A DNA stretch of 62,327 nt, the filler included, from Aduncisulcus paluster (lineage: Eukaryota), in the NCBI GenBank assembly GCA_024181965.1. It is 6 parts of 6 records of this genome, joined end to end, with 100 filler letters (N's around TTAATTAATTAA, not from the genome) between each part and the next. Parts side by side here need not be neighbours in the genome. Positions count along the whole stretch, not along the records: positions 22,861 to 40,073 come from BQXS01010910.1; 5 more parts are not named here. The stretch is one strand, 5' to 3'. Below, piece after piece: positions 7,805-56,308 of the stretch. Position numbers and translations under genes: made by a program. The notes beneath the pieces were generated by a model, which saw only the letters and a program-made list of their open reading frames with translations, had not been told where the DNA came from and did no database searches. Position 1 is the stretch's first letter; each line of letters opens with the position of its first letter.

Positions 7805-7824
7805 NNNNNNNNNNNNNNNNNNNN
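7805..7824. other. 20-N scaffold gap with flanking overlap duplication (~7611-7804 repeated at ~7826-8018)
   Basis: Identical sequence on both sides of the gap. Confidence 0.95.
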
Positions 7825-14490: not shown

Positions 14491-14590
14491 NNNNNNNNNN
14501 NNNNNNNNNNNNNNNNNNNNNNNNNNNNNNNNNNTTAATTAATTAANNNNNNNNNNNNNNNNNNNNNNNNNNNNNNNNNNNNNNNNNNNN
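14491..14590. other. Artificial contig linker N44-TTAATTAATTAA-N44
   Basis: Six-frame stop spacer, identical at five sites. Confidence 0.98.
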
Positions 14591-15758: not shown

Positions 15759-16298
15759 GGTTTTTGTAAATATTAATATCCGTTATAATGGATTATCGCA
15801 GCGATAATCGAGGCATTCATGTTTAGGCAACTTCACTAATATCCATAATGTTTGTATATAAATTACCACAATGTTATCTCAAGCACTTATAAATCAGAGA
15901 TTATAGAAACACAAAATTTGTGCGTAACACAATTACGGCAAAATTTGGGATCTGTTTCCAAATTTTGATAAAATTTATCTAGTAACTATCTAAATCCAAT
16001 TTTAGCATAACCATGTCATTATTTGGATATTGTATTTCATAAATATTATCAATAATATATTTAAAACATATTTGAGGAGTAAGGTTGAACCTTCAACTGA
16101 CGCCATTTGGACAACACTCTGAAATTTTATATCTCCAAAATCTCCATATTGTACGTTATTAATACCAATTATGCCGGGATCTATTTTCTATTTAATTTAG
16201 TTAGTCCTCATGACTAATTTTCATCACTGTCTCGTTAAAATATACCATTTCCGATAATACATGCCAAGAACATATAAATACGGATTAATACTTTACAA

Positions 16299-22760: not shown

Positions 22761-22860
22761 NNNNNNNNNNNNNNNNNNNNNNNNNNNNNNNNNNNNNNNN
22801 NNNNTTAATTAATTAANNNNNNNNNNNNNNNNNNNNNNNNNNNNNNNNNNNNNNNNNNNN
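22761..22860. other. Artificial contig linker
   Basis: N44-TTAATTAATTAA-N44. Confidence 0.98.
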
Positions 22861-25800
22861 GCATGGATTTTTCTGAGGTTGACTTGTCTTCCCTCCATAA
22901 TTTGACATATCTTGATGTTTCTTCGACTTTGTTTGCTTCATTCTCAATCGTTCCATCCACTGTCACTACTCTCATTGCAGATAACTGTACTGAATTATGG
23001 GACATTCCTTCAACGGGTTTTGCTGATGTTTCCAGTCAAATCGAGGTTCTTTCCTTGGTTTCTGTGGGACTGTATGATATTTCACCCTTTTATTCTTCAT
23101 CTTCACTCACATCTCTTGATATCTCATCGAACCCTGTCTGTGCTGATCCCAATATTGCATCATTAAACTCATTATTCGATAATCCCTCTTCCATAGAGGT
23201 CATTTCCGATGCGTTGACGTGCCCTTGTGATTCTTTCCCGAGCATGGACATAACTGATAATTACGTATGTGCTCCAACATATCCTGGGTCAAACACATAC
23301 TATCCCCAATGCTCTTGTGATACGTTTTATGATGATGATAATTCATTACATATTATTTACTGGAATGTGTCAGAGTTTACTTGTATTCGTAATGACGATT
23401 CTTGTTCTGGAGGCTGTGAATATGGATATATGTGCTCAGGTGCTTCAGGTTGTCGAAGAATAGTCCCGAGTGAAAATACTCACAATTGTGTGTACGATCA
23501 CTTGCTTGAATTGGAAGATGTTCACTATGATCCCAGTGAAAACTTTAGTGTTGCTTCACTGAAGGTGCTGACTGAACTTGATTGTTCGAACAAATCTATT
23601 ACAGATGTAACTGATATTAATCATGCAATTAACGTCACTTCTATGCTTTTCTATGATAACGAAAATCTCAATGCTATCTATCCTCTTTGTAATGCTTCTG
23701 TAGAAATACTCGATGTCCACAGTACAAACGCCAACACTTATGGGTTCAATTTTGAAACAGAGCAACAATTGGAAATACTGAATTTATCGAACACAAATTA
23801 TGGAAATTTGGAGTTAAATCAGTCAGTTCCAACTTATCTTGGTGGACTGAGTAATTTTCATAAGTTAAAAGAATTATATGTCGGCGACAATCCATACTTG
23901 CTATCTGTTACCCCAATTTATGGCACCATCGAAACATTGGAGATTTTAGATATCCACAATACAGGAATTACTGATCTTTCAAGCTTTTATACAATTTCTT
24001 CCGGGGGAGCTCTTGGAAACGCTGTCTTGTCTACTCTTAATATGTCAACCACTATCATTGATATGTCAGGGCTCCAGTATTTTACTGGGATTACACATCT
24101 TGAAGCTCAAAATTCCTCCATATTGAATGAAGATTTGTATTATCTTCGGAATAATTCCCTCGAGTATCTTGATCTCGGCCCCGATGATGAGGGTAACAAC
24201 TCTAATTTCATCTATGATCCATCCCCCTTGTACATTCATCCCCTCACTGATATTAATTTAGTTGGACAACCTATATGTGGGGATTCTGTCTCTGATGATC
24301 TCTTAACAATGTTAAACGTGGATATAACTGCCAGTCACTCCATTTACTTTAGTCTTCCAGCTGGATTCACATGCCCTTGTTCCTCGTCTGAGACTCTGTC
24401 GTATGATCTTCTTTCAAATAGGATATGCACTCCATCAACACTGACCTCTGGATCTTGGAATGTCGTTTGTGCAAGTAATAGCTTCTCTGTGTATTCATAC
24501 TCAGACGATTATGAGTGTGTATATCTCGATGAGAGCGATGACTCCAATATTGGGTGTCCTGGAGGATGTTTGTACGGCGAAGAGTGTCGACTTAACTCTG
24601 ATGGAATTGCCCAATGTATGACGGTGCTTAGTGATCCAGAATTTCATGGCTGTATTGCTTCACAACTTGATTCTGCTGACAAGGATGGAGATTCTTTCAG
24701 TGTATCCTCGCTAAAAACTATTTCTGGTTCAGAACTTCGGTGTGAAGATATGTCAATTGCCAATATCGATGGCATTGAACACTTTACGAGTGTGACATCA
24801 ATATATATGGAAAATAATTCAATTACTGATGTTTCACCTATCAAAACCATGGATAACCTGACATTTGTTGATTTTACATTGAATTCTATTACTGTTACTC
24901 CTCAGCTCGGGGATATGTCCAACCTAGAAACTCTTATTTTTATTGATAATCCTTCTCTTTCATTCAGTAATTCGTTCGATCCTGATGCACTTTTCCCTTC
25001 CTCCCTTAAGAGTCTCAAGATAGAAGGGACACTTATTGATAATGACGGTTTCAACCAACATATTGCATCTCGATTGAGTTCTCTCTTAGAGATTAATATA
25101 GCAAATTCAAATGTAACTGATATTTCTGGATTAAGTGAGACGCAAATATCAACTATCACCAAAGTCAATGCTGGTGACAATACTCTTGATTCTGGATTTA
25201 TTGCCACCCTTTCATCGATGACTAATCTCGAATATTTGTCCGTTTCAAACTGTAATTTGACTGAACTATTTGATCTATCAAACAGTGCATCAACTCTATC
25301 TGAATTGTATATATGCGATAACGATATTTATTTCCTTGATTGTATCAGTGAAATGAGTGCATTGACCAAAATAGATGCCTCTGGTTGTTCTCTGTCAGAT
25401 ATTTCCCCACTATATTCATTGCCCAATCTCTCGANNNNNNNNNNNNNNNNNNNNGTGACAATACTCTTGATTCTGGATTTATTGCCACCCTTTCATCGAT
25501 GACTAATCTCGAATATTTGTCCGTTTCAAACTGTAATTTGACTGAACTATTTTATCTATCAAACAGTGCATCAACTCTATCTGAATTGTATATATGCGAT
25601 AACGATATTTATTTCCTTGATTGTATCAGTGAAATGAGTGCATTGACCAAAATAGATGCCTCTGGTTGTTCTCTGTCAGATATTTCCCCACTATATTCAT
25701 TGCCCAATCTCTCGAGACTCTTACTCGATGGCAATAACATATGTTTGGGCAGTGAAACATCTTCTGCGTTTGATAGCAAGTTCACTGGAAATGTTGATAT

Positions 25801-28800
25801 TTCCCTTGAATCTCTTGAATGTAACTGTGATATGACTTCCATTGCAGCCATTACCGATAACAAGATCTGTGTTGAACCTAAGCCTGGAGCTGGAAGCTGG
25901 ACAATCGTGTGTGCCAGTAATAGTTACACATATTACAACTCGAGTCCAGATTTTGTATGTTATGATACGAATGTGAACCAGAGCAATGCTTTATCGTGTC
26001 CCAAAGGATGTCAATATGGCGAAGAGTGTCGCTTGGATGCTAATAGTGGAGTTACAAGCTGTTATCCTGTTATTGTTGATCCCGATCTGCGATTATACAT
26101 TGCCACAGACCTTGTTAGAAGCGAATTTGTCGGAGGAACAAGCTCATCTCCGATCATTACTGTGGCTGCTCTTCATTCCGTGGGTAGTTCTGAGGTTGTC
26201 GATGGGGTGTTCCCCACTCTTTCTGACATTAGTGGAATTGAGCATCTTATTAACGTTACTGAGTTAAACATTTGTGGATCAAGCGTGTTATCCGATGTGT
26301 CTGGTCTTTCTTCCATGAAACAACTTGTGACATTAAATTTATCTGAAAATAACATCAGTAACGTTTCAGCAATTGCTTCGTTCAACTTTACTGATCTTCA
26401 ATCGCTTAATCTATCGAATTGTCCTCTCGATTCGAGTGTTTCTCAGCTTTATCAGCTTTCAACCCTCCAAACTCTTGATATTAGCGGAGAACACACTGGT
26501 TCCATCAATATTGAACTTTATGGCACTGGTCTCACTCAAATTGAATCATTGAATCTCTCTGGTTGGGAGCAATTGATCCAACTTCCCTCGTTTTCCTCTT
26601 CAAATATCTTGAAATATCTGAATGTATCGGACACCGGACTTGAAAATTTGGACACACTTTCCAATCAAAGCTCATCTCTGGTCACTATTATTATGGATGG
26701 CTGTGATCTCAGTGCTGGGTCATGTTTATTTTNNNNNNNNNNNNNNNNNNNNCACTGGTTCCATCAATATTGAACTTTATGGCACTGGTCTCACTCAACT
26801 TGAATCATTGAATCTCTCTGGTTGGGAGCAATTGATCCAACTTCCCTCGTTTTCCTCTTCAAATATCTTGAAATATCTGAATGTATCGGACACCGGACTT
26901 GAAAATTTGGACACACTTTCCAATCAAAGCTCATCTCTGGTCACTATTATTATGGATGGCTGTGATCTCAGTGCTGGGTCATGTTTATTTTCTTCATTTT
27001 CCAACCTTTCGAGCCTCAGTATAAATTCTACCAATTATCCAATCTCATCCCTTTCTTGTTTCTCTTCCAATTCCCTCTTGACCAGTTTCTCTGGGGATAG
27101 TAACGGATGGTATCATTTGTATGGATTTAGTAATCAACTTGCGCAACTCACAGATCTTTCATTGAAATCCAATTATATCGGTGATCCATCCCCTCTGTAT
27201 CTCCTCAATTCTTTGACCAGTCTTGACCTCTCATATAATACTATATGTGGTACCGATACCGATATCATCAGTAAGTTTACTAGCCTCTCCTCATTGGTAT
27301 TAACCCAAGAAGAGGGATGGGAGTGTCCATGCGATGAGAGTGAAGTTTCAATTCTTGACAACAAGGTGTGTGTTGAGACATACCCTTCCTCGGGCACTTT
27401 CTTTGTTGAGTGTACAAGCGGTTCGTATTATTCTTACGATGCAAATCAAGGATTTACGTGTACTGACGATAGCGTTTATTGTCCTGGGGGATGTGCTTTC
27501 GGAGAAGAATGTTATCGTGCAACATACGTTCCATGTGATCAATATAGTCTATGTCAATCTGTTGTCCCTGATGCCAATCTCAAGGCATATTTACTTAGTC
27601 AAATACCTTCTATCCATGTTTCTCCAAGTGGCGATTTTAGACCGAGTGTCCTGCGTCTTATTGAGGAAATTCACTGTTCCTCGTGTGATATTGATAGTAT
27701 CGTCGGGTTGAAACACGCAATTTCTTCCCTTGTTATTGATGTTTCGTCCAACAACCTCATATATGCAAGAGATTTTGGATTTCTAACCCAACTTATCAAG
27801 TTAGATTTAAGTAACAACTCCTCTATTATTGACGCTGGTTGGAACTTGGCGAATCAAGAGTATGATTTTGAAGAATTGAACTTCTCAAATGTCGGTTTTG
27901 GAACGGCTAGTACTATTACAGATATTATTCCATCTTACTCAGCCTCTTATCCACATTTGAAGCGTTTTGATCTCTCAAATAATACTGGATTAAGTGCTTG
28001 TTCGGGATGTGGGGAGTTTTTTGACCTCCTTGAGTGGCTTGATATTAGCAATACATCCATTACTGATTTATCATATATTGTTATTAATCCCACAACAGAA
28101 GAGGTCGAAAACAATACAGCGTTGAAATATCTTAATATCACCAACCTATCTCTGACAGACTATAGTTTCTTAGAAAATCTCTACCAACTTGAGGAATTTG
28201 TTGCACAGAATTCACATCTAACAAGCTATCATCTCCCACTCTTGAGGAATTCTTCGTTATCTTCACTTGATCTTGGTCTGAATTCTGAAAGTGTTAATAA
28301 CAATCGGATCTCCGATCCCTCCCCACTTTACATGCATCCTCTGACTTCTGTTGTCCTCGATGGTAACATGATTTGTGAGGATGATTCTGTCATTGTTTCG
28401 AATATCATATCCAAGATCAACAACAATTCTTCGTCTGTCACAGTTTCTGCAAGTACTCAGAATTGTCAGTGCTCAGATCTGTCCTCTTCGGGTGGGTGGA
28501 TCTTATCTGATGTTGTATGCATGGAGACAATACCGTATTCGGATGAATGGAATACGGTATGTTCAAGCCATTCAATCACGGAATATTCAAGTGCTGAAGT
28601 GTATGAGTGTGTTACTATTGGCGGTGTATCTGGCGATTCCATGTCATGTGATGGTGGATGTGTATTTGGTAATGAATGCCGTTACGATTCTACTCTTGGA
28701 TCTAGTCAATGTGAGGCTGTCATCTATGATGAAAATCTGCGTGATTTTATTGCTTCCTACATGCTTACCTCTGCACATAAATATAATAATCCAACAATTT

Positions 28801-31800
28801 TTAGTGTATCATCCTTACGTACGGTTAATGATACAGAGCTGGTATATAATGGAAATACACAAGCCGAAATGATCTCTTCCATTGTTGGAATTGAACATCT
28901 TGTTTCTCTTGAAACCGTTTATGTTCTAAATAATACCCATTTGGAGTCAGCTGTTTCACTCGCTCATTTGACCAATTTGACGCTAGTTAATGTTGAATCA
29001 ACTGCGATCTCTGATATTTCGTTCATTTGTACACTTCCAAATCTCATCAATCTCAGTTTTTCTTCGTTGGAAGTTGATAACCTTCCATCATGCTCAAGCC
29101 CAACTGCATACTCAAATCTTATAGGGTTGGATATTTCTCAAACTGGAATTATTGATTTATCTCCTCTTCTTATCCATGAAGCTGGTACTAAAAACAATCT
29201 CATTCAACAGCTCTTTTTGGATACAAATAATCAATCCATTGATGGAGAGGTTGTGTATTTCGACCCATCTCAATTGATTAATTTTCCAAACATTTCAATG
29301 CTTTCTGTGTCCTCCATGCATATCAATGAAAGTCTTTTTGGATATATTATGGATTTAGGGCTTATATATTTAGACATTAGTGATAATTATTTGTATGATA
29401 TTTCCCCCCTTGTGAATTTCATAGATCTATCGAACATTCTTGCTCACACCAATTATATTTGTGATCCTACGTCCATTTTGAATACGAGTTATTTTAGTGC
29501 TTTGACTAACGTAACCTATGGTAATCAGGATACTTCCCATTGTTTAATATGTAACTCAACAACTCCCATGACATATTTAGGGAACCCCATTGTTCATTTT
29601 GATGGATCTGGAACTGCTTCGTACAGTAACAATACTGTGTGTCGAAAAGTTTGGGACTGGGAAGTCGAAGAAACTGATAACACAATCACTCAGCATGAAC
29701 AATGGAGTGTGCAGTGTAATTTATACAGCTTTAAATCTTCAAGTGGTACATGTGAATCCTACTTTGCATCTTCTCCGGTTGATCCAATTCCCCCTTGTTT
29801 TGATGATGCTACAGCAAATGTTCATATGGAATGCTCAACAGTGACATCTGACACGGCTTGTCTTGATGGGTGGTATGGAGATTCATGTGATTCTGAATGC
29901 TTACTTGATGATAATGATGTCGTTTGTGGTGATCCATCAAGATGTAACCTTGCCACCCATGAATGCGCCTGTGGAAGTGATCTTTTTGGAGACGTCTGTG
30001 AATATGTAAATTTTGACGATGATTCTCTGAAACTATTCGTTTGTTCATTAAATGAAGTAACTTGTACAGTTGATAATGATGTTCCTGTCAGTGAAATGGC
30101 TAATATTGAGGAATTAGATATTAGTGATATTTCTTCTTCAACACTGAGCAGTTTAGGTGGACTGAAATTTGCTTCAAATTTGACATCTTTTACTGCGAAA
30201 AATATTTCTTTTACTGAAACTTCCACTCCCTTGAACGAATTTTCTGACCTGGAATTGCTTGAATCTATTGTTATTGAAGGGATAGCAGTGACTTCCTATT
30301 CACAATTGCCGTCTTCATTGTTGCAACTTGATATTTCTGACGATGAATCTTTTGATTCAGCAGTGCTTGAGACGATTCCATCTGATTTGACCCTTGATTC
30401 TCTTACCTTAATGAATCTCTCTGTCAATGATATTTCATATCTTTCCAATTTCTCTGATTCGTTGAAGTCGTTGAAGCTTCGCTCTTTGAAATTAAAATAT
30501 ATTTCCGTGATTGAAGAAAGCCTATTTTCTTTGACTTCTCTTGATTTAACAAGCATCAATCTCTTTGATGATCCTTCCGATACGTCTTCAACTCCATCTT
30601 CCCATTATCTGAATCAAGACGATTGTGCTGCCTTGGACTGGACTGTGCTATCAGATCTTAAGATTTTATCTATAAATGGTAATAATATTTCATCGCTCAC
30701 ATGGCTGGGCAACCCATCTACTGGTTTGTATGATCAATTGACCTCTCTAGATGTTAGCGATAACATCTTCTTGTCTGATGTATCACCCTTATTCCAGTTC
30801 TCGAAATTATCACTTCTCGATATCAGTGGAAACTCAGTTCATCTTGGAATTCCCCAGTCTTCTTCCACTACACTTGAAGACTTCAAATCATTATTCCCAA
30901 GTGATTCTTTAATACAAAATTCCACGTCTATTGTTTTGACTCCACAAATTGAAAGATGTTCTGATCTAACTTCGATTACCGCTTTAGTTCAAAATAAGGT
31001 CTGTTCCGAGACGAAGCGTGGTTCCAACACATGGCACACGACCTGTGCGAGTGATTCATACACGACATACTCTTCCGCCTCCGAGTTCACATGCACTCGT
31101 CCCGATGCCTTGTCCACCAACTGTTCCGGTGGGTGTGAGTACGGGTATGAGTGTCGTTCCATCTCTGCTGAGCCTGCTCAGGGTTCGTGTGTTCGAGTGA
31201 TCGAGGATAGCACATTGCATTCCTGTATTGCCTCGCTCTTCACGGATACGACACATAGGACTGATGATAATGACTTCAGTGTGTCCTCTCTGAAACTTCT
31301 TGGGACGGATTCGTTCGCTTCGACGGTGACGTGTGTTGGGGATGGGACCAATCAAGTGTCAGACCTGGCTGGGGTTGAACACGTTGTAATGGTGACTAGT
31401 CTTGATCTGCAATCCAATTCCATTGCAGACGCAGCTTTGCTCGAAACACTCTCTTCCCTACAAACCATTGACTTGTCCAATAATTCTGCTCTTGAAGAAA
31501 TGCCTGAGCTTGGTGGATTAGTTTCCCTGTCGACACTCGATTTGGATTCCACAGGGATCTCGCTTCCTACGGGCACCAATACAGACGTTTTGCTCCCTGT
31601 GTCCAGTCTGTCCAACCTTAATCTCCATGGGACCAACATTACCCAAACCGAATTTGATGCTCATGTTGCAGCCAATCTCCATGTTCTCACCTCCCTCGAT
31701 GTGGGCTATACGAATGTCACCGATCTGTCACAACTCAACTCGGATCTCCTCGAGTCACTCGAAGAACTTAAGTTGGAGGGTAACTCTCTCTCTGCCGACT

Positions 31801-34800
31801 CATACCCAGTTCTTGCAAACATGTCACAGCTTGAGTCACTTTCTCTTATCAACTGTGACTTGACCAAGATTCCCAATCTTTATAACAGTCGAACCACTCT
31901 GACAAAGCTTGTCCTCTCGAACAATGCAAACATTAACGTGCTTGAATCCATTTTGACATATGAGTTATCATCCTTGCAATTCCTTGATCTCAGTCATTGT
32001 TCAGTTTCGGACGTATCCCCTCTTTATCCCCTTTCTGCACTGACCGATCTTGATGTGTCGTATAACAAGATCTGCACTGGTAGTGGCACTGCTAGTACCC
32101 TTGCATCTCATTTTGACAGCGACTCGTCTCTGTCTATTAACCTCTCGGATCAATCATGTCCTCTGGGATGTAGCACGCTGCCGACGGATACTGATCTCTT
32201 TGAATCCAACAAGGTGTGTATTGAAACTGTCCCTGGCTCCTCGAAATGGTTCCCTGTATGTACCAGTGATTCGTACACGACATATTCTTCCGCCTCCGAG
32301 TTCACATGCACTCGTCCCAGTGATCCTTCCAGTTGCTCCGGTGGGTGTGAGTATGGGTATGAATGTNNNNNNNNNNNNNNNNNNNNTCATACACGACATA
32401 CTCTTCCGCCTCCGAGTTCACATGCACTCGTCCCGATGCCTTGTCCACCAACTGTTCCGGTGGGTGTGAGTATGGTGAAGAGTGTCGTTCCATCTCTGCT
32501 GAGCCTGCTCAGGGTTCGTGTGTTCGAGTGATCGAGGATAGCACATTGCATTCCTGTATTGCCTCGCTCTTCACGGATACGACACATAGGACTGATGATA
32601 ATGACTTCAGTGTGTCCTCTCTGAAGCTTCTTGGGACGGATTCGTTCGCTTCGACGGTGACGTGTGTTGGGGATGGGACCAATCAAGTGTCAGACCTGGC
32701 TGGGATTGAACACGTTGTAATGGTGACTAGTCTTGATCTGCAATCCAATTCCATTACAGACGCAGCTTTACTCGAAACACTCTCTTCCCTACAAACCATT
32801 GACTTGTCCAATAATTCTGCTCTTGAGGAAATGCCTGAGCTTGGTGGATTAGTTTCCCTGGCGACACTCGATTTGGGTTCCACAGGGATCTCGCTTCCTA
32901 CGGGCACCAATACAGACGTTTTGCTCCCTGTGTCCAGTCTGTCCAACCTTAATCTCCATGGGACCAAAATTACTCAAACCGAATTTGATGCTCATGTTGC
33001 AGCCAATCTCCATGTTCTCACCTCCCTAGATGTGGGCTATACGAATGTCACCGATCTGTCACAACTTAACTCGGATCTCCTCGAGTCACTCGAAGAACTT
33101 AAGTTGGAGGGTAACTCTCTCTCTGCCGACTCATACCCAGTTCTTGCAAACATGACACAGCTTGAGTCACTTTCTCTTATCGACTGTGACTTGACCAAGA
33201 TTCCCAATCTTTATAACAGTCGAACCACTCTGACAAAGCTTGTCCTCTCGAACAATGCAAACATTAACGTGCTTGAATCCATTTTGACATATGAGTTATC
33301 ATCCTTGCAATTCCTTGATCTCAGCCATTGTTCAGTTTCGGACGTATCCCCTCTTTATCCCCTTTCTGCACTGACCGATCTTGATGTGTCGTATAACAAG
33401 ATCTGCACTGGTAGTGGCACTGCTAGTACCCTTGCATCTCATTTTGCCAGCGACTCGTCTCTGTCTATTAACCTCTCGGATCAATCATGTCCTCTGGGAT
33501 GTAGCACGCTGCCGACGGATACTGATCTCTTTGAAGCCAACAAGGTGTGTATTGAAACTGTCCCTGGCTCCTCGAAATGGTTCCCTGTATGTACCAGTGA
33601 TTCATACACGACATATTCTTCCGCCTCCGAGTTCACATGCACTCGTCCCAGTGATCCTTCCAGTTGCTCCGGTGGGTGTGAGTATGGGTATGAATGTCGT
33701 CTGGGGGTTTCTTCTTATGAATGTCTCCCTGTTATTGCCGACGATGTTCTTCACGCATGTGTGATAGATAAGCTCGATGCTACAGACCAAACTGATGGTG
33801 AGTTTGGAATTGCTTCTATGAAGGCTCTTTCCGTGCTTGAGTGTGCTGGAGTGACTCCAGTTCCATCTCTGATTGTAAGGGTATTGAGCATGCTGTGAAT
33901 GCTGAATCATCATTTGTCAAACAATTCCGACTTGTGAGTTTCATCTTTAGGTACACTCACAAAAACCTCAAAGAATTGGATTTGCATGGTTGTACATCAC
34001 CAACTGGACTGCGAATTAGTTATGCATTGAGGTTGTCAATATTTCCGATACAGGGCTTGGATCATCGTACGGAAAGCCTTCCATTACTCGATTAAGTTCT
34101 ACATTTGTATGCAAATGGACCGAGTTGCAAAGTTTGGACATTTCTTATAATCCTGGTTTGCTTAGTCTTGGTGACATCTCGTGTATCACCGATGTGTTAA
34201 AGACCCTGAATCTCGATAGTTCCGGTATTTCCGACTTGAGTCCGCTCTATCACGATGATGTCTCTGGGGAAGACTCAACCAATGCAGTACTTTCAAGTCT
34301 GACCATCTCCAACTTGACTCTCTCAGACAGCTCTCAACTCGGCAATTTGACTGGACTGTCAACCTTTGTTGCACAGAATGCCTCCATCGACTCGTTTGAC
34401 CTCCACATGCTCAGTGGTCTGTCTGCCCTTGAATACATCGACTTTGGTCCCAACACCTCCTCGGACAACAACAACAAGATCTCTGACCCGTCGCCTCTGT
34501 ACAAGCTTGAGCATGTGTCTTACATTGACCTTCGTCTCAATCCCATTTGTGGCAGTACTGAAGATGTTGTTACTACCATCGCGTCGGGACTTGGAAATGC
34601 TCCCACGGTAAAGTTTGATTTATCATCTTCCTGGGTGTGTTCTTGTACGTATGGAGGTTTGGAGCCTCAACTTTCCGATGATCGAGTCTGTTCCGAGACG
34701 AAGCGTGGTTCCAACACATGGCACACGACCTGTGCGAGTGATTCATACACGACATACTCTTCCGCCTCCGAGTTCACATGCACTCGTCCCGATGCCTTGT

Positions 34801-37800
34801 CCACCAACTGTTCCGGTGGGTGTGAGTACGGGTATGAGTGTCGTTCCATCTCTGCTGAGCCTGCTCAGGGTTCGTGTGCTCGAGTGATCGAGGATAACAC
34901 ATTGCATTCCTGTATTGCATCGCTCTTCACGGATACGACACATAGGACTGATGATAATGACTTCAGTGTGTCCGCTCTATCACGATGATGTCTCTGGGGA
35001 AGACACAACCAATGCAGTACTTTCAAGTCTGACCATCTCCAACTTGACTCTCTCAGACAGCTCTCAACTCGGCAATTTGACTGGACTGTCGATCTTTATC
35101 GCACAGAACGCCTCCATCGACTCGTTTGACCTCCACATGCTCAGTGGTCTGTCTGCCCTTGAACACATCGACTTTGGTCCCAACACCTCCTCGGATAACA
35201 ACAACAAGATCTCTGACCCGTCGCCTCTGTACAAGCTTGAGCATGTGTCTTACATTGACCTTCGTCTCAATCCCATTTGTGGCAGTACTGAAGATGTTGT
35301 TACTACCATCGCGTCGGGACTTGGAAATGCTCCCACGGTAAAGTTTGATTTATCATCTTCCTGGGTGTGTTCTTGTACGTATGGAGGTTTGGAGCCTCAA
35401 CTTTCCGATGATCGAGTCTGTTCCGAGACGAAGCGTGGTTCCAACACATGGCACACGACCTGTGCGAGTGATTCATACACGACATACTCTTCCGCCTCCG
35501 AGTTCACATGCACTCGTCCCGATGCCTTGTCCACCAACTGTTCCGGTGGGTGTGAGTACGGGTATGAGTGTCGTTCCATCTCTGCTGAGCCTGCTCAGGG
35601 TTCGTGTGCTCGAGTGATCGAGGATAACACATTGCATTCCTGTATTGCATCGCTCTTCACGGATACGACACATAGGACTGATGATAATGACTTCAGTGTG
35701 TCCTCTCTGAAAGAACTAGGAGTTGAAAATCTTGAGTGTGATGGAGTGGATATATCTTCCTTTGTTGGTCTTGAATCGCTCACTTCTCTTTCTTCCGTCA
35801 ATTTTGCATGTTCATCGTCCGTCGATGTGTCTTTCACTCTCTCATATTTGTCAAGCATCTCATGGTTACGATCCATTGACGTGAGTAATTGTACCTCACT
35901 GTCTCTTTCCTCATACCTTGGCGAGTTTTCTGAGTTGATTGAACTGAGAGTAAGTAATTGTAATTTGACAACAATGCCCAATCTTTCTTCATCCCTTGAG
36001 ATTCTTGATATTTCAAATAACTCACTCGAATCATTAGATTTTATTCTATCTTCTTCGTTGTCTTCCTTGGTCCAATTCATTGCAAATAATAACTTAATTT
36101 GGAATCCATTTCCACTATATGAAGCGAAGGATTCTTTATGTTATGCGAATTTGAGTGAAAACTATATTTGTGATTTCACTGAGGATAATATTAATGCTTT
36201 TGCCCAAAACTTCTACCCCTCTGAATGTTCTGATAGTATCCCCCAAGGATTTGACTTTACTTCTCAAGCTTCATGTGACTGTTCAGGTTCAAACGTTTCA
36301 GAGAACAAAGTATGTGGAAAAGATGCAGATGAAAATGGCGATGAAACCTATGATATTGTCTGTCCAGCTGGAACATATCGTAAAGCTGATTCTTCTTCGT
36401 TGTCTTCCTTGGTCCAATTCATTGCAAATAATAACTTAATTTGGAATCCATTTCCACTATATGAAGCGAAGGATTCTTTATGTTATGCGAATTTGAGTGA
36501 AAACTATATTTGTGATTTCACTGAGGATAATATTAATGCTTTTGCCCAAAACTTCTACCCCTCTGAATGTTCTGATAGTATCCCCCAAGGATTTGACTTT
36601 ACTTCTCAAGCTTCATGTGACTGTTCAGGTTCAAACGTTTCAGAGAACAAAGTATGTGGAAAAGATGCAGATGAAAATGGCGATGAAACCTATGATATTG
36701 TCTGTCCAGCTGGAACATATCGTAAAGCTGATTCTTCTTCGTCTGATGGTTATATATGTGTCTTTATTGACTCAAGTGATGACGATTTGGTTGATTTTTG
36801 TCTTGAATGTAACTCAAATATCTTTACTCAATGTTCATACTCCGTCATTACGGATGATATCGAGTGTGCTTGCCGTGATGGATGGTTCGGAGAATATTGT
36901 GATTCATATTGTCCTGTGTTCATCGAGGATGGCCAAGAATATGCCTGTGGAAATGGATCATCATCTTTCCATGGAACATGCAATGCTACTGCCCATCAAT
37001 GCGAGTGTGAACTTGGATGGTCTGGTGATAATTGTGGAATTGATAGTTGCTATGCTGATACTGTTGAATGTTCTGGGAATGGAAGTTGTTCTCAACTTTC
37101 TGATACTTCATCTGCGTGTTCATGCAATATTGGATATGGAGGTGAGCTGTGTTCTGAACTTTTATGCTCACAGAATGAAGATGGTGAGTTATGCTCTGGC
37201 AATGGTAATTGCGAGAAAGATCAATTCGGTGAGTATTATTGTTCTTGTTATAACGGATACATTGCCAACTTGGACAACTCAGATTGCCTTTCAATGTGTT
37301 CTGAAGGATATTGCATCAATGGTGAATGTATTGGTGATGAGTGTCTATGTGATAGTGGTTTTAGTGGATCTCGATGTGAGGAGTATTCGTGTAGTGATTC
37401 AGCATCTGACGAAGAAGTGTGTAACAATCATGGAGAATGCGTTCGCTTTGACCTATCATCTCATCAATGTGTTTGTGAACTTGGATGGAATGGTTCGACT
37501 TGCAAGGATGAAGGTTGTCCTTATGATGGTAATTCTGTGCAATGTGGAGAACACGGAACATGTGTCTCTGATTCTGATGTCAGTGAGTGTCTTTGTGATG
37601 ATGGATGGACATTTTCCGAGCTGGGAGTTTGTGAAGAAAAGGTTGGAACATGTGCTGATGACTCTGATTGTTCATCGAATGGGACATGTGTATTCAATTC
37701 CGATGAATCACATTGGGAATGTTCGTGTTATGACGGTTGGAGTGGTGAAACGTGCATCAATGATGTATGCTCCCCTGCATGTGATGCCTCGTCCCATTCA

Positions 37801-39365
37801 TATGAGATTGCCTTTCAATGTGTTCTGAAGGATATTGCATCAATGGTGAATGTATTGGTGATGAGTGTCTATGTGATAGTGGTTTTAGTGGATCTCGATG
37901 TGAGGAGTATTCGTGTAGTGATTCAGCATCTGACGAAGAAGTGTGTAACAATCATGGAGAATGCGTTCGCTTTGACCTATCATCTCATCAATGTGTTTGT
38001 GAACTTGGATGGAATGGTTCGACTTGCAAGGATGAAGGTTGTCCTTATGATGGTAATTCTGTGCAATGTGGAGAACACGGAACATGTGTCTCTGATTCTG
38101 ATGTCAGTGAGTGTCTTTGTGATGATGGATGGACATTTTCCGAGCTGGGAGTTTGTGAAGAAAAGGTTGGAACATGTGCTGATGACTCTGATTGTTCATC
38201 GAATGGGACATGTGTATTCAATTCCGATGAATCACATTGGGAATGTTCGTGTTATGACGGTTGGAGTGGTGAAACGTGCATCAATGATGTATGCTCCCCT
38301 GCATGTGATGCCTCGTCCCATTCATATGGATGTTCTGATCTGAATGGTGATGGATCTTTGGTTTGCGAGTGTAAACAGGGCTGGTCAGGCTCTGATTGCT
38401 CTGAAATGAGCTGCAATTGTAATGGAAAAGGAGAGTGTGTGGAAGAATCTGACGGTTCTGTCATTTGTGAATGCATCGATGGATGGTATGGTGAATCTTG
38501 CAATGAAATAGATTCTTTGAATTCTGAAACCATTGATGATGAAATAATTGTTCCATATACCGATTGGAGTGATTCTCTCCTATTTAAGTCATCTCCATTG
38601 TTTGCTTTGCATCGAAACCAAAATATTACAATTCATGACGTGTCGATTTTTGAATCTTTCCCGTTGCCATACCAAAAATTGTCCGAATTGGCCGTAGAAT
38701 TCATGTTCGTTCCTTTTGTTATTGTGGATTTTGAAATTCAAGATTCAAGTGGAATTCCTCAAGAATTTATTTCTGATGGGTCTATTTTTAGATTATTCCA
38801 AGATGAATCGGATTCATGTGTGTTTGTATTTTGTTATGATTCCGTTTACCAAGATTCCACACTTGAATCTCTGGATTCTATACAATGTTCCAAATATTCA
38901 CTCCCATATTGTAATGGTTCTCTGTCTCCTTACAATAGGAATGAAATGACAAGTTTCTACTCGCGTCATCTTGGAACCATTCGTCCTTCCATCAAACTTA
39001 TCCATAATTCTATCAGCAAGCATGTAGGTGTTCTTCAAAATTCTTTTCCGGTCCACTCTCGCATACATGCATCTTCCGCTCGATTACTAGCTTCGTACTC
39101 CATTCCGCATTGTTCATTGGATATAAATGGGGCAATCACACGTGTATTTGGGAATTTGCTGGTACAATGTGTGTGTTCCGAGGAGAATTCTTGTTCATGG
39201 AGAAAGTCTATTTATCATGATAGTGTTTCTGTGATCCTGACAACCACAGAAACAGAAGATAGTATTGAGTATGACTCGAATGGAATCTATGTTTCCTCAG
39301 ATGAAGATGGATCTATTGTGACAACACCATCCTCAGTGACATACTCAATTGCTATATATGTCTAA
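22861..39365 (+). CDS. Giant modular LRR / Cys-rich / EGF-repeat protein, probably one gene of several thousand aa, 5' truncated, broken by gaps, frameshifts and duplications
   Basis: Consecutive + ORFs 22863, 25385, 26622, 32363, 34125, 34915 and 37818 with LxxLxxLDLSxNxI repeats, recurring CxC...VC..T.PGS..W...C.S.SY...F.C...CxGGCxYGxEC caps, and EGF-like CxCxxGWxGxxC repeats from ~36860. Confidence 0.85.
25435..25454. other. 20-N gap with overlap duplication
   Basis: ~25174-25434 repeated after the gap. Confidence 0.95.
26733..26752. other. 20-N gap with overlap duplication
   Basis: ~26494-26732 repeated after the gap. Confidence 0.95.
30999..35712 (+). repeat. Near-identical Cys-rich linker cassette copies and duplicated LRR units
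   Basis: GTCTGTTCCGAGACGAAGCGTGGTTCC...GACTTCAGTGTGTCC at 30999, 34686 and 35416, partial at 32387 after a 20-N gap (32367-32386). ~1.3-kb unit duplicated (31056/32387) and 730-nt unit duplicated (~34245/34975). Confidence 0.9.
36050..38327 (+). repeat. Exact tandem duplications of 342 nt (36050/36392) and 524 nt (~37282/37806)
   Basis: Identical ORF pairs offset by 342 (36155/36497) and 524 (37361/37885). The 524-nt copy shifts the frame. Confidence 0.9.
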
Positions 39366-39510
39366 GAAAATTATTCGCACCAATTTCGTTAACTATCATA
39401 GTCTATGATCATAGATGTCAACTTTAGGTTTTAAATTCAAATTAGGGATCGGTATACCGACGGTATATTAATCCACAATAAATTGGTTTTTCACATTTCA
39501 AATGACAATA

Positions 39511-39590
39511 CTATTGTGTGAGATTGAAGGGAAAGGAATGTGGTGGGATGAGAAGAATAGTCGACGTTTTAGAATCCTCTCCCTTGTTTT
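39511..39590 (+). pseudogene. Short relic of the kinase-associated repeat domain
   Basis: TATTGTGTGAGATTGAAGGGAAAGGAATGTGG...AATAGTCGA matches ~41407-41457 (LCEIEGKGMW). Confidence 0.7.
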
Positions 39591-40073
39591 TACAATGCCA
39601 TAGGGCCTATGAGCTGGAAACGGAAGTCGAATGCAATGCATTCAATGTATTGTCCCGGAAAGAGATTCACAAACTGGTTTTGAGAACTTTGATTTCTGAG
39701 CAAGAGAAAATATATCTAAAAACCAATAAAATCAATTCGTTTGTTCTTTTCAGACGTTATTTCTTGATTCCTAATAATTCAACATCAAATATGAGAGTGG
39801 AATCAGGTGGAATAGAATCGCCAGCTCCACGGGCACCATAACCATAATCAGGATCGATTTGATTACAATCGTGGCTCTTTCACCAACTTAATGTAAGAAA
39901 GGCTTCATCCCAAACACTGATAACCATACCCATTCCAACTGCAAATTCAAAAACCTTCGATATCACTTTCCATGATTGTCACATTGTCAATCTAGGGTGA
40001 AATAGCACAAAGCTCGGTATTAAATGTATCGGATGATCAGGATCTGACATTGGAGTTGGAGTTGGAGTTGGAG

Positions 40074-40173
40074 NNNNNNNNNNNNNNNNNNNNNNNNNNN
40101 NNNNNNNNNNNNNNNNNTTAATTAATTAANNNNNNNNNNNNNNNNNNNNNNNNNNNNNNNNNNNNNNNNNNNN
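40074..40173. other. Artificial contig linker
   Basis: N44-TTAATTAATTAA-N44. Confidence 0.98.
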
Positions 40174-43100
40174 CTTCGAGAATCCATTGAGGAACAATGG
40201 TCTAAAGCTGTATGTTCATTATATTTTATTAGTTTAATATTTTCATATTTCTTTGTTTTATTATTTGATATGATTCACGCTAATCTTGTTTTACAATATT
40301 ATCTCTCGATTTGTTTCTAATACCATTATATATCTCTTTTTCAAAAATGATATGTAGCCCACCATTAAATCAGAGTTTGTGAATTCTGGCGATGCATCTG
40401 CCATCCCCATTCCACGTGATAATGCAGCCGTTAATAATCCTTCTTTTGAGATGGTCAAGGGAAAGCATGATTTGTATTGTCAGGAATCTAAGGAGTATGA
40501 CCAAAGTGAAGAAGCTCAAAAAATGTTAAAATGTGAAGGTAGGGTGGAATTATCCCATCTTTCCATCCCTTTTCCATCACCTAGTCCAATGAAAGGTGCT
40601 TATATCTGTGTGGAGAAGGATTCCAGTTCACCCTCTCTTCGCTTCACTTTCACTGATTGTGATGGTAAGAAGACATCCAAGAAGTATGAATTCATAAGAC
40701 CTAAACATAGATTTGAATGGCACTTCCTTCCTATTGATTTGGATAATGTTGTATTGTGTGAGATTGAAGGGAAAGGAATGTGGAAACGGAAGGATAGTCG
40801 ATACTTTAACATCCATTCTCTCGTATTCCTTCGAGAATCCATTGAGGAACAATGGTCTAAAGCTGTATGTTCATTATATTTTATTAGTTTAATATTTTCA
40901 TATTTCTTTGTTTTATTATTTGATATGATTCACGCTAATCTTGTTTTACAATATTATCTCTCGATTTGTTTCTAATACCATTATATATCTCTTTTTCAAA
41001 AATGATATGTAGCCCACCATTAAATCAGAGTTTGTGAATTCTGGCGATGCATCTGCCATCCCCATTCCACGTGATAATGCAGCCGTTAATAATCCTTCTT
41101 TTGAGATGGTCAAGGGAAAGCATGATTTGTATTGTCAGGAATCTAAGGAGTATGACCAAAGTGAAGAAGCTCAAAAAATGTTAAAATGTGAAGGTAGGGT
41201 GGAATTATCCCATCTTTCCATCCCTTTTCCATCACCTAGTCCAATGAAAGGTGCTTATATCTGTGTGGAGAAGGATTCCAGTTCACCCTCTCTTCGCTTC
41301 ACTTTCACTGATTGTGATGGTAAGAAGACATCCAAGAAGTATGAATTCATAAAACCTAAACATTTATATGAATGGCACTTCCTTCCTATTGATTTGGATA
41401 ATGTTGTATTGTGTGAGATTGAAGGGAAAGGAATGTGGGAAGAGGAGAATAGTCGATGTTTTGAAATATTTTCCTTAGTTTTCCTCCAACAACGTATTTT
41501 ATCGGGAAAAGCTGAATATATCTATAATGGAGACTATTCATGCATTCCAATCCCTCGAGATGATCCAACATTTATCAGTCCAGTTTTTATTGAAATTAAT
41601 GCAAGAAAGAAACAAAACTATGGATATGTTGATACGAGCGAGTTTGTACAAGCGATGATGAAAGGATTGGATATTTTTCATAATTCTGAGTTTTCTAATA
41701 TTTCCATTCCTTTCAAACCATCATCAACATCTATAAAATGTGCATATGTCTGTTTACCATCTCGTAAGTCTTCATCTCTTACATTCACATTCACTTCTTC
41801 AAATGGAAGCAAAATATCATATTTATATGAATTTGATGCTGAATCCGAAGATCGTTGGTTTAAGCTTTCAATTGGTCTCTCTGATATTATTTCATGTGAT
41901 ATCAAAGGAGACGAAGAAGAAATGGAGAATTTTGGAATTATTTCCCTTGCTTTTTATCGAGAAGATACTCCAGATGAATATATTGCTCGAAAAAAACAAA
42001 GAATATATCTTGAAGAACTCTGGTTGAAATCCCCACCTGTGATAGCAATGTCTGTAACCAAAGAAATTGTAGATTCTATTGATGATACCTCAATCATAAA
42101 TTCTTCATTCTCAGATGTTACGTGTAAGAATGATGTATATTGTAAGGAATCTGGGCGGTATGATCGGAGTTTAGAAGCACAAAAAATGTTAAAGGGGGAA
42201 GGTATTGTATACTCCTTATCGCATCTGTCCATCCCTTTTCCATCACTTAATTCAATTAAAGGTGCATATATTGCTGTTTCTAAATATTATCTCCCTGGTC
42301 TTCTCTTCACTTTCACTCTTTCGAATGGAAAAAAGATATCTAAGAGGTATGAATTCACAGATCTACAAAAATCTGAATATTACTTCTTTCTTCCTATTGA
42401 GCTTTCAAAGGTTGATTTATGTGAGATCCAGGGAAAAGGAACATGGGAACATGACAAGGGTCGTCGAACTTTTCAAATAACTTCCCTTATTTTTATTAAA
42501 GGTGAAGACATTCCTCCCCTTCCTTCAGATTCCACAAAGCTTATCAAACATGACTCTTTCACTCTCACTTCCTCTGCAACCATCATTCATCAGTGCATCA
42601 TTGGTCGTGGTGGATTTGGTGAAGTGGTTCTTGTTAAAGTTGATGGTATTCCCTTTCCTTGTGTTCTGAAGAAAATGCTTCGTGAAGCTGATGAAAGGGT
42701 TGTTAAAGATTGTCGAAAGGAGTTCAAGATGCAACTCAAATTGTTTACGAATGGCAAATGTTTCAATCGTATATCACGTCCTTTGTATATTCTTGACCTG
42801 CTTGATGCAGATATGAAAGGTGAATATGGATTTATCATGGAATATTGTGCTGGAGGCAGTGTGAGTGCATTTGCTAGAAGTTGGTGTGATGATGGCAAGT
42901 ATGTGAGTGATATTGGTGATGCTGATGATAGTGAAGATTCTGATTCATCTTGTATTTCTGATTCTGACTCCAAGTATGATATTGACACAACTCATTTTGA
43001 TCCCATGAGACTGAACCCTGTGAAAGTGAGTGCTCTCTGTGTTGGAATGATTGAGTGTCTTGATGATGTGTTTAGAGCAAAGAAGAGTCTTGTTCATCGA

Positions 43101-44121
43101 GATGTTAAACCAGATAACTTTCTTGTTCGTGTTGATCCTGATTCAAAGAAATGTACAATTGTTCTCTCTGATCTTGGAATGGTCCAAGTCTTAGATTCTA
43201 TCACATCATCTGTAACTTCCAAGAGTTATATTCCCTTCTTCTTCCACCAAACAAGAAAAACGACTTTCACAACCTAAACCCTCTGCGTGTGGAACTCTTG
43301 TGTATAATTCGTATGAAACTCTTTGTGAGGGGAGACAGACTCAAAAGAGTGATGGATATTCTCTTGGAATGTCGATTCTTTCGTTATTCTTATGTGAGCA
43401 ACCTTTCACTTCATTGCCCATCTTCAGAGAAGTTTATAGGAAAGTTCGCATGGGAGAAGCAAGTTATTTTGACATTATGATAGAACTTAAACATTTAATG
43501 GAAAATGATATGTGTCAGCGTCTCTCTCGATCTTCTTTGTTTAAGTCCTTGTTAATCATTGACGATGGGAAATATAAACTTGTTCATAAGGTTTTGAATG
43601 AAATATTCACAGGTCTCACCCAACTCGATGAAGATGAACGTATGAGTGTTCATAAAGCTCGAAAGAAAGTTCAATCCATCAAACATTTACTGCCCCAGAT
43701 TGGAGAAGGATTTGAATGTCCATCCATTGAGGATATTGTAAAACGTCAGCTTGCAGAGTATGACGGGAATGCTGGAATCATTGAAGAGGTAAAGAAAGAT
43801 GAGAGTGAAAAACAGAAACAAGATAGTGAATCATCACCAAGACATGCTACACCCACTTTAACAACAACAAGTCTATCTGAAATGGAGAAGAAAGGATCTG
43901 GAATTCCTTCTTTTCCTTCACAATTATCAAGTTCAATAATCTCTCGTGATCCACTGATAGAAGAAGAAAGAGAACATGACACTTCTATTCTTGCTTCCTC
44001 AAAAGACACTTCCTCGCTTAGTGCTATGAGTTCAATTCATAGTACACAGTTCCAGTCATCAGAACATGATAAAGAGCACGATAAGGATCATGATAAGCAA
44101 CATGATACTCCCCATGAGTAA
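40174..44121 (+). CDS. Ser/Thr kinase with at least 4 N-terminal ~165-aa repeats; exons 40174-40209, 40358-40864, 41013-44121 with a frameshift near 43232; 5' truncated
   Basis: Repeat consensus IPIPRD..SHLSIPF..MKGAYI..FTFT..GKK.SK.YEF..WHFLPI.L..CEI.GKG.W. Kinase motifs IIGRGGFGEV, VLKK, HRDVKPDN, SDLG, then in another frame CGTLVYNSYE, SDGYSLG. Paralog of the 16299 kinase. Confidence 0.85.
40210..40357 (+). other. Phase-0 spliceosomal intron (148 nt)
   Basis: GTATGT...CTAAT...TGTAG; joins EEQWSKA|PTIKSEF in frame. Confidence 0.85.
40865..41012 (+). other. Phase-0 spliceosomal intron (148 nt), identical copy of 40210-40357
   Basis: Same sequence offset by 655 nt; the enclosed exon is 507 nt (169 codons). 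Confidence 0.85.
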
Positions 44122-46149: not shown

Positions 46150-46249
46150 NNNNNNNNNNNNNNNNNNNNNNNNNNNNNNNNNNNNNNNNNNNNTTAATTA
46201 ATTAANNNNNNNNNNNNNNNNNNNNNNNNNNNNNNNNNNNNNNNNNNNN
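46150..46249. other. Artificial contig linker
   Basis: N44-TTAATTAATTAA-N44. Confidence 0.98.
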
Positions 46250-56208: not shown

Positions 56209-56308
56209 NNNNNNNNNNNNNNNNNNNNNNNNNNNNNNNNNNNNNNNNNNNNTTAATTAATTAANNNNNNNNNNNNNNNNNNNNNNNNNNNNNNNNNNNN
56301 NNNNNNNN
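56209..56308. other. Artificial contig linker
   Basis: N44-TTAATTAATTAA-N44. Confidence 0.98.

Follow-up and report, generated by a model that had tools for sequence, protein, structure and literature searches.

The window, a stretch of 62,327 nucleotides, consists of six contigs of the Aduncisulcus paluster draft with artificial spacers between them. The two linkers of main interest, A and B, both lie within the contig at positions 22861-40073, that is, in a single giant gene, in which LRR cassettes and Cys-rich linkers are followed by EGF repeats. LRR_4 profile scores in this gene are 91, 70 and 79 bits, against a curated cut-off of 27. The public model of the contig, P0028, has 5239 aa, a length inflated by false duplicates; the N-terminus of the protein is absent from the contig. 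The draft was assembled with MaSuRCA from 150-bp Illumina reads only, with inserts of ~500 bp, and has an N50 of 4.6 kb and a BUSCO score of 40%. As read evidence we used contigs assembled from the reads of two runs independently of the draft (k = 31) and aligned to the window, and copy number was inferred from the depth of these contigs. Beyond the start of the draft contig, the read-built contigs reach a further 1.5-4 kb upstream. The gene, its EGF region and its disturbed stretches are as follows.

22861..40073, plus strand: contig and giant gene, bounded on both sides by artificial [44N]TTAATTAATTAA[44N] spacers; LRR_4/LRR_8 and teneurin-type EGF matches
25174..25715, plus strand: false 261-nt duplicate around a 20-N gap; joint 25272>25554
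26494..26991, plus strand: false 239-nt duplicate around a 20-N gap; joint 26540>26800
33850..34040, plus strand: zone in which two frame breaks separate the collapsed frames of 3072 aa and 1249 aa; partly read by eye
36049..36742, plus strand: false 342-nt duplication, 100% identical; joint 36048>36391 in both runs
36967..38500 (limits approximate), plus strand: teneurin-type EGF repeat region, including the false 524-nt duplicate
37281..38331, plus strand: false 524-nt duplication, frame-breaking; joint 37280>37805 in both runs

The read-built contigs show that four of the duplications are artefacts of assembly: in both runs they pass over duplicates of 281, 259, 342 and 524 nt. Without any of the six duplicated stretches, the gene opens into frames of 3072 and 1249 codons; with five removed and the 1331-nt one kept, the stop-free frames are 2988, 503 and 1249 codons long. 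In the zone with the frame breaks, read-derived contigs show 1-2-nt insertions. The P0028 model thus holds at least four false duplications joined by spurious splices, and repeat-based claims from this draft require read support.

The linkers, the cassette between them and the related copies are arranged as follows.

30999..31295, plus strand: linker A, Cys-rich knob and helical N-cap, 99 codons, leading from cassette X to cassette Y1
31050..31103, plus strand: 54-nt shared core, with further sites at 32265, 33596, 34737 and 35467
31296..32213, plus strand: LRR cassette Y1, with a twin, Y2, at 32627-33544
32367..32386, no strand: 20-N scaffold gap separating the two copies of a 1311-nt segment
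32387..32626, plus strand: partial A-type linker A2 (GEEC variant), beginning in the shared core behind the 20-N gap and leading to cassette Y2
33545..33832, plus strand: cap type C behind Y2, with a partial twin at 32214-32366
34686..34978, plus strand: extra linker copy within a frame-breaking 730-nt tandem duplicate (34237-34966 = 34967-35696)
35416..35712, plus strand: linker B, identical to linker A at 294 of 297 bases, leading from cassette Z to cassette W

Linkers A and B are 98.99% identical over 297 nt. The three differences (A/B: 31192 T/C, 31210 G/A and 31232 C/A) comprise two replacements (CVRVIEDST versus CARVIEDNT) and one silent change in 99 codons, and the initial 193 nt are free of any difference. 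At both edges the identity ends abruptly, and the flanks (...ITALVQNK and LLGTDSF... for A, ...EPQLSDDR and ELGVENL... for B) are only distantly related. The caps nearer the 5′ end of the gene, at 24432, 27363 and 28524, share only 43-54% of bases with A and B. These observations bear out the earlier note, which had described near-identical copies that differ at a few bases, with different flanks on either side and with diverged caps further 5′. Protein conservation does not explain the identity of A and B, because only 3 of 297 bases differ, silent sites included, against 43-54% identity for the other linkers.

Both edges of the linker are present in the reads. A 9186-nt read-derived contig that comes from cassette X enters linker A for 30 nt and stops at 31028; a 150-nt contig from cassette Z (34566-34715) likewise stops 30 nt into the linker tract, at 34715; and a 2993-nt contig that runs into cassette W has its start at 35683 and so includes the last 30 nt of linker B. 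The 30-nt offsets match those expected for a repeat that starts at 30999 (34686 behind Z) and ends at 35712. Because the read-derived contigs stop at the linker edges, the shared tract is real, and their depths in the flanks are near single-copy (1256, 1206 and 1328). Two different flanks upstream and one or more distinct flanks downstream enter the same tract, which must therefore occur two or more times in the DNA, however the flanks are paired. The pairing itself, X-A-Y and Z-B-W across a 297-nt repeat, rests on the MaSuRCA assembly of 150-bp pairs, and no single 150-bp read can link X or Z to A- or B-type letters, because 193 identical nt come first. None of the read-derived contigs conflicts with the letters of A or B, an agreement that falls short of proof.

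Linker-like sequence recurs between A and B. The copy at 34686-34978, together with its 730-nt duplicate, is probably either a misplaced variant or a product of faulty assembly: the read contig at 34566-34715 has a single-copy depth of 1206 though its sequence is identical in both 730-nt copies. Only two real full copies of the A/B type are left in the contig, and A, A2 and B are mutually 95-99% identical. A search of the window for the 54-nt core with at most two mismatches returned five matches, compared with none in 100 shuffles. The core sites at 32265 and 33596 belong to another cap type, C, so that the earlier claim of a core of about 48 nt in a second type of cap holds with a slightly longer core. 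Cap C is otherwise 63% identical to A, and the parts that it has in common with A and B are limited to the core (33596-33649) and the CSGGCEYGYEC codons; it shares exact runs of 20 and 33 nt with them, versus ~55% identity elsewhere. Among 18 candidate short proteins bridging the C-type cap, none matched at E ≤ 1e-10.

Both core sites in cap C fall in the two copies of one 1311-nt segment (31056-32366 and 32387-33697), which are 98.4% identical, with 21 differences and one cluster of four. A read contig at 31527-31850 has a depth of 2732, versus about 1256-1328 in the flanks, and judging from this depth cassette Y is probably present in two true copies. The core-to-core distance from linker A to cap C is 1215 nt, or 405 codons, and this spacing, with Y apparently present twice, makes an in-frame duplication of Y by crossing-over in the core plausible. 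That the 1311-nt repeat is an unmerged overlap like those at the other four 20-N gaps is weakened by the size and divergence of the repeat and by its read contigs at about double the depth of the flanks: the overlaps at those gaps are 195-280 nt long and 99.5-100% identical, versus 1311 nt with 21 differences. Between the two copies of Y in the assembly and the read contigs the match is inexact, with additional variants in the read contigs at 31430, 31434, 31694, 31714-31727, 32097-32163 and 32675-32761, and the whole of 31028-35683 is broken into short read contigs with variants absent from the assembly. Among the read-contig joints reported, none skips the 730-nt or the 1331-nt duplicate. 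The earlier note had allowed that extra copies might be mis-assembly, which probably applies to the copy at 34686-34978 but not to the copy at 32387, which by read depth probably belongs to a real second copy of Y. That note had not mentioned these two linker copies (34686-34978 and 32387-32626), the twins of the 1311-nt segment or the false duplications in the contig.

The linker is found in at least three cassette contexts. Two, X-L-Y and Z-L-W, lie in the window, and one, Z′-L-Y(start)-W′, lies on another contig, in the paralogue P0005. P0005 is 44% identical overall to the Z-B-W-EGF part of the gene, yet the first two blocks of 100 alignment columns (the end of Z and the linker) hold 82 identities each, and 110 of 113 residues match A2 and the start of Y2. 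In the window the high-identity tract stops with the linker, whereas in P0005 it continues for another 29 codons. A loose read-contig end at 34594 reads as the P0005 sequence IDDADV. The P0005 mosaic is seen at the protein level and in the same fragmentary assembly, where chimeric contigs could imitate recombinants. Identity switches across the family also pile up at the linkers: over 657 alignments of family proteins (row W2 omitted), 357 of 483 switch points fall within -45 to +65 residues of CxGGC. We rejected this clustering as evidence of recombination because no other domain of the family is as conserved as the knob, where breaks in assembly chimeras would fall as well.

We read the linker as a module of the protein and not as a signal in the DNA. 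In a structure model with a pLDDT of 78, helices at 135-142 and 159-162, where pLDDT is above 90, form a helical N-cap packed on the first repeats, and the top solved matches in Foldseek are the N-cap and LRR of Listeria internalins (1h6u, E 4e-5, 112 columns). The 3′ half of the linker and the first repeats superpose on the internalins (InlH 1h6u, InlC2 4fho, InlB and InlA) with an rmsd of 1.9-2.0, and the giant gene has Pfam LRR_4 matches, as internalins do. In contrast to internalins, with which sequence identity is 17-22%, the A. paluster protein is eukaryotic, has many cassettes and carries before each cap a Cys-rich knob with no separate structural match; neither an inter-repeat (IR) region nor an anchoring domain was seen in it. 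A model of the knob alone, from seven window sequences, reached a pLDDT of 56.8, too poor for a structure search, and the knob is therefore left without a fold assignment. The linker combines a putative small disulfide-rich beta knob, which closes one LRR cassette, with an internalin-type helical cap, which opens the next, and this module recurs within the giant protein and across its family.

The giant LRR/EGF protein is probably secreted or at the surface, which would place it outside the cell. It shares with the VSPs of Giardia and the cysteine-rich membrane proteins (CRMPs) of diplomonads the Fornicate lineage, an expanded Cys-containing family of extracellular type and EGF-like repeats. 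According to an excerpt of PMC11437800, the VSP and CRMP classes of diplomonads are defined by more than 10% Cys, many CXXC motifs and a transmembrane helix with a short tail; by these definitions the A. paluster protein, which is dominated by LRRs and has 5.0% Cys, falls outside them. P0028, P0005 and P0030 showed no transmembrane window; the sole hydrophobic window lies in the frame-break zone, and the contig is without the N-terminus.

Gene conversion and unequal crossing-over operate in tandem families of extracellular LRR proteins in plants, such as the Cf-4/Cf-9 and Xa21 clusters. Comparable modular families of extracellular LRR genes, as far as excerpts of the sources describe them, are Leishmania PSA (PMC2584048) and Anopheles APL1 (PMC9222773). 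The A. paluster gene resembles families shaped by conversion and crossing-over in its patchy near-identity, sharp ends, mosaic paralogues and in-frame gain of modules. It differs from them in that the homogenised piece is a Cys-rich linker between cassettes of one giant gene in a free-living metamonad, a case known from one draft assembly. The VLR system of lampreys has an incomplete germline gene with flanking silent cassettes, cytidine deaminases and somatic diversity. Its LRR cassettes are a point of likeness, as are cassette ends with a short sequence in common, by which joining in frame could be guided (PMC4731796, in excerpt); in A. paluster, by contrast, the cassettes are already joined in continuous frames, with no sign of donors or of somatic variants.

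Homogenisation of the linker extends to the level of bases, silent sites included, which points to recent transfer of sequence and not to conservation of the protein. Gene conversion is expected to leave near-identity with abrupt ends, found here as 99.0% over 297 nt against diverged flanks, and silent sites as identical as replacement sites, which is also the case. We infer that conversion and crossing-over caused the identity, and consider that it is explained, with a probability of about 0.68, by recent gene conversion or unequal crossing-over between non-allelic copies within a modular LRR family restricted to this lineage. In the 3′ half of the gene, recombination between non-allelic copies would recently have homogenised the linker, conversion tracts would stop where homology stops, and at least one unequal crossing-over in the 54-nt core would probably have duplicated cassette Y in frame. 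It is rather unlikely that the pattern is instead a product of assembly, with chimeric joins through a family-wide conserved repeat or with consensus blending of paralogues or alleles, and a true locus that has another order or fewer copies. In favour of this reading, the same contig has four proven false duplications and a likely fifth, the draft is fragmentary and built from short reads and inserts, 31028-35683 is shattered with read-contig variants missing from the assembly, and the 193 nt shared by A and B keep single 150-bp reads from assigning X or Z. Against this reading, two upstream flanks and at least one downstream flank enter the tract at about single-copy depth, and the read contigs leave the A and B letters uncontradicted, though not thereby proven. 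A single recent segmental insertion or duplication without conversion, in which a block split one linker and A and B are its young ends, seems improbable. It would fit the 95-99% identity among A, A2 and B as well as the Z′-L-Y(start) junction of P0005, a circular permutation expected for repeat units of the form L-Y...Z, but it leaves unexplained the isolated 54-nt core in the 63%-identical cap C and the differing tract ends in the window and in P0005 (+29 codons).

The earlier note went further and proposed that homogenised linkers allow shuffling of cassettes, akin in logic to VLRs or antigenic variation. Homogenisation at the base level and the at least three contexts of the linker uphold part of that proposal, but a programmed, somatic or antigenic-variation-like mechanism finds no support, the cassettes standing in continuous frames. 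Programmed or somatic shuffling, with linkers as joints for frequent in-frame recombination within a clone, would accommodate the one linker in three contexts, the in-frame 1215-nt core spacing, the Y variants, of which the read contigs show more than the assembly does, and a large, fast-evolving, lineage-restricted family. We nevertheless regard it as very improbable: once duplicates are removed, the cassettes form continuous frames (3072 and 1249 codons) and are not silent donors, homogenisation is confined to the 3′ half of the gene, with 43-54% identity for the other linkers, depth in the flanks is single-copy and their graph ends are clean, no enzyme or signal sequence was identified, and paralogues explain the extra Y variants equally well. 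Equally improbable in our view is the upkeep of the linker and of its 54-nt core as joints for high-frequency mitotic in-frame swapping or duplication of cassettes; in that case the recognition repertoire of a free-living protist would be combinatorial, in the same logic as the VLRs of lampreys. It is plausible that the linker has recombined in the course of evolution; the reading by gene conversion and unequal crossing-over implies exchange of cassettes on that time scale, not a programmed mechanism.

The linker/LRR family appears, from sequence searches, to be restricted to A. paluster. A family search matched 22 of 34 candidates, every one named A. paluster, and 48 representatives of 50%-identity clusters among 1.84 billion matched at E ≤ 1e-3; of ten representatives looked up, seven have an organism name, in each case A. 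paluster, and the other three are the weakest matches. A search of the full-text literature found no paper on this A. paluster LRR family beyond a generic LRR count in the excerpt of PMC11437800, and a multi-cassette, internalin-like LRR family with a Cys-rich knob linker in A. paluster is apparently undescribed. In this bacterivorous flagellate, the family proteins may act in the recognition of prey or of surfaces. Should the mosaic be borne out by long reads, the family would offer a clean case of evolution at the level of modules, with conserved linkers serving as islands of homology for in-frame gain and exchange of cassettes.

Linkers A and B are Cys-rich linkers between LRR cassettes of one giant gene, which lies in contig 22861–40073 and has, as assembled, the cassette order X-A-Y and Z-B-W followed by EGF repeats.

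30999–31295, linker A
31050–31103, 54-nt core within linker A
32387–32626, partial A-type linker (A2)
33545–33832, cap C, a second cap type, with a partial twin at 32214–32366
35416–35712, linker B

The two linkers align without gaps over 297 nt at 98.99% identity, and the identity stops at both edges, where the flanking residues are ...ITALVQNK and LLGTDSF... for A and ...EPQLSDDR and ELGVENL... for B. Three sites differ (31192, T/C; 31210, G/A; 31232, C/A), giving two replacements and one silent change in frame (CVRVIEDST vs CARVIEDNT). The core has five matches in the window at ≤2 mismatches and none in 100 shuffles; two of these (32265 and 33596) fall in cap C, whose identity to A is otherwise only 63%, with longest common exact runs of 33 and 20 nt. 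The more 5′ linkers of the gene (24432, 27363 and 28524) have 43–54% base identity to A and B. The earlier note had described near-identical linkers with different flanks, a core recurring in another cap type and diverged 5′ caps, and these observations are confirmed. At the end of cassette X (30807–30998), the usual 'N.IC ... C.C' cap motif found ahead of the linker in other family rows is missing, and the stretch models poorly (pLDDT 49–62); linker A may have been joined onto a foreign cassette end.

The linker is coding sequence. In the contig, the pattern C.GGC.[YFW]G..C matches ten times on the plus strand and never on the minus strand. A structure model of 30807–31529, built from an alignment with 17 family sequences (pLDDT 78), predicts a β-hairpin Cys-rich knob (residues 64–130), followed by helices and LRR strands at pLDDT >90. 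Among solved structures the best matches, which span the cap and first repeats, are to Listeria internalins (1h6u, E = 4e-5, 112 columns). A model of the knob alone was too poor for use (pLDDT 57). Pfam assigns LRR_4 and LRR_8 to the cassettes and teneurin-type EGF repeats to the 3′ end. Cys content is 5%, and no transmembrane window was found in the protein as read, whose N-terminus lies beyond the contig. Judging from its disulfide-rich and EGF domains, the protein would be located outside the cell.

The Aduncisulcus paluster draft is a MaSuRCA assembly of 150-bp Illumina pairs with ~500-bp inserts and without long reads, comprising 25,863 contigs with an N50 of 4.6 kb and a BUSCO score of 40% (PMC9933649). 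The window is not one continuous DNA: five spacers (TTAATTAATTAA between two runs of 44 Ns) join six contigs, and no feature should be traced across them. Self-comparison reveals that the sequence before every 20-N gap is copied again after the gap, along with three more tandem duplicates that are gapless. We aligned Logan contigs (words of 31 letters) from the two runs containing the stretch (X1 and X2, same sample). The spacers, the gaps and the duplicates skipped by those contigs are as follows.

14491–14590, 22761–22860, 40074–40173, 46150–46249 and 56209–56308, artificial spacers
7805–7824, 11976–11995, 25435–25454 and 26733–26752, 20-N gaps with a 99.5–100% copy (195–280 nt) behind
25272>25554, 281-nt duplicate, skipped by one contig in each of both runs
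26540>26800, 259-nt duplicate, skipped by one contig in each of both runs
36048>36391, 342-nt duplicate, skipped by one contig in each of both runs
37280>37805, 524-nt duplicate, skipped by one contig in each of both runs

The duplicates at these four 20-N gaps are unmerged contig overlaps, and those at 25435–25454 and 26733–26752 are skipped by read contigs. Given the skipping contigs in both runs, four of the six duplications of the contig have no counterpart in read-derived contigs. Once all six are taken out by script, one frame of 3072 codons stays open as far as 33898 and another of 1249 codons spans 34020–39365; keeping the 1331-nt duplicate and removing the others leaves 2988, 503 and 1249 stop-free codons. 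The public gene model of the contig, P0028 (5239 aa), includes the duplicates, bridged by short spliced or out-of-frame stretches. Both the draft and the public gene model thus contain false duplications, a practical warning to users. The giant gene also has two frame breaks at 33850–34040, where higher-depth read contigs have 1–2-nt insertions, which suggests assembly error or a paralogue blend. A 655-nt tandem duplicate (98.6%) directly behind a spacer, at 40174–41457, looks like the false duplicates elsewhere. P0007, a family protein from another contig, has an exact tandem repeat (SFVPQINFSSQPINDLAGIEHL twice), which suggests that other annotated family members hold the same kind of false duplication.

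Elsewhere in the window, the contig closes at 39507–40073 with an element in very high copy (contig depths sum to ~3.5e5 vs ~1.3e3), a 43-nt piece of which (TATTGTGTGAGATTGAAGGGAAAGG...) occurs three times in the next contig (40752, 41407 and 42415). A long low-complexity CT-rich tract with 24-nt periodicity and a GC skew of −0.43 occupies 46765–47369. Two protein-kinase-domain ORFs on other contigs (16278–20645 and 41013–43277) have common 82–86% identical patches (17129/42992 and 17761/43637), and the former has an internal 924-nt repeat (87%, 18628/19636).

The 730-nt duplicate 34237–34966 = 34967–35696 contains an extra linker copy (34686–34978), and no contig skipping it was reported among the read-derived contigs of the two runs. 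It is probably false or a misplaced variant, since it disrupts the frame, which is restored on its removal; a 150-nt contig that is the same in both copies (34566–34715) has a depth of 1206, vs 1256 and 1328 for the single-copy flanks; first-copy-specific letters at 34361–34370 are in no contig of either run; and an X2 contig joins unique 34122–34236 to second-copy letters at five sites.

On contig evidence, the shared tract itself is real. The X1 contig out of cassette X (9186 nt) ends at 31028, the read-derived contig from Z ends at 34715, and the contig into W (2993 nt) begins at 35683. For a word length of 31, all words at these positions fall wholly within a repeat, implying repeat limits of 30999 (34686 for the copy that follows Z) and 35712. 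Because contig ends match repeat limits, two upstream contexts and one distinct downstream context enter a single tract of the DNA. The contigs establish the two upstream contexts but not their pairing with downstream cassettes, as A and B do not differ over the linker's initial 193 nt, a length that exceeds one read.

The 1311-nt repeat 31056–32366 = 32387–33697 straddles a 20-N gap but is another kind of duplicate than the 195–280-nt overlaps at the other four, which it far exceeds in length. Between its copies there are 21 differences, four of which are clustered and turn GYEC into GEEC. Contig 31527–31850 has a depth of 2732, ~2× its flanks, and variant-specific contigs in the repeat have depths of 1207–1437. 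We read cassette Y as present in two real copies, depth being no sure copy number; read contigs over Y also carry further variants found in neither assembled copy. At the gap, the first contig ends 48 nt past the core, in cap C, and the second begins 7 nt into the core. The distance from the core in A to that in C is 1215 nt, or 405 codons. Unequal crossing-over within the core would generate an in-frame tandem copy of Y together with a hybrid C/A cap.

Linker-matching proteins make up 22 of 34 candidates, all named A. paluster. At E ≤ 1e-3, a linker profile search among 1.84 billion returned 48 cluster representatives, 41 of which also pass 1e-10. Ten matches were looked up: seven carry a name, A. 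paluster in every case, and the remaining three, the weakest, have none. P0005, which belongs to the family and sits on another contig, runs collinear with Z-B-W-EGF at 44% identity overall. Specifically, its blocks 1 and 2 (100 columns each, Z end and linker) are 82/100 identical apiece, the following W cassette is 25–37% identical, and the 3′ part of its linker, taken with the 29 residues behind it, matches A2 and the beginning of Y2 (110/113). This mosaic provides a third context for the same linker, Z′-L-Y(start)-W′. A read-contig loose end at 34594 encodes IDDADV, the P0005 sequence, so read words are common to P0005 and the window as far as this position. Family members are also connected by numerous further patches with at least 90% identity, in cassettes and linkers alike. 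Such mosaics might instead be chimeric contigs, given that all the family proteins stem from short contigs of the one draft. Identity switch points (357/483 near the linker) were discarded as evidence, being confounded by domain conservation.

Recent non-allelic gene conversion fits the 3′ half of this modular gene, where unequal crossing-over has probably acted too. The earlier inference of cassette shuffling, likened to antigenic variation or VLRs, is partly supported: the linkers are homogenised, and on an evolutionary time scale cassettes would be gained or exchanged in frame. The remainder is not supported, with no silent donor cassettes seen and no homogenisation in the gene's other linkers. 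Comparable LRR-family recombination occurs in plant Cf and Xa21 clusters. It is also known from Leishmania PSA (PMC2584048) and Anopheles APL1 (PMC9222773). Full-text literature searches, together with passages of PMC11437800, yielded no account of the linker family or of recombination within it; that paper only gives numbers of LRR and Cys-rich proteins in fornicates. The process would be of a known kind, seen here in an apparently undescribed family that seems confined to one lineage. As the best-conserved stretch, the linker is a homology island, and as such it would guide recombination between repeated parts of the gene.
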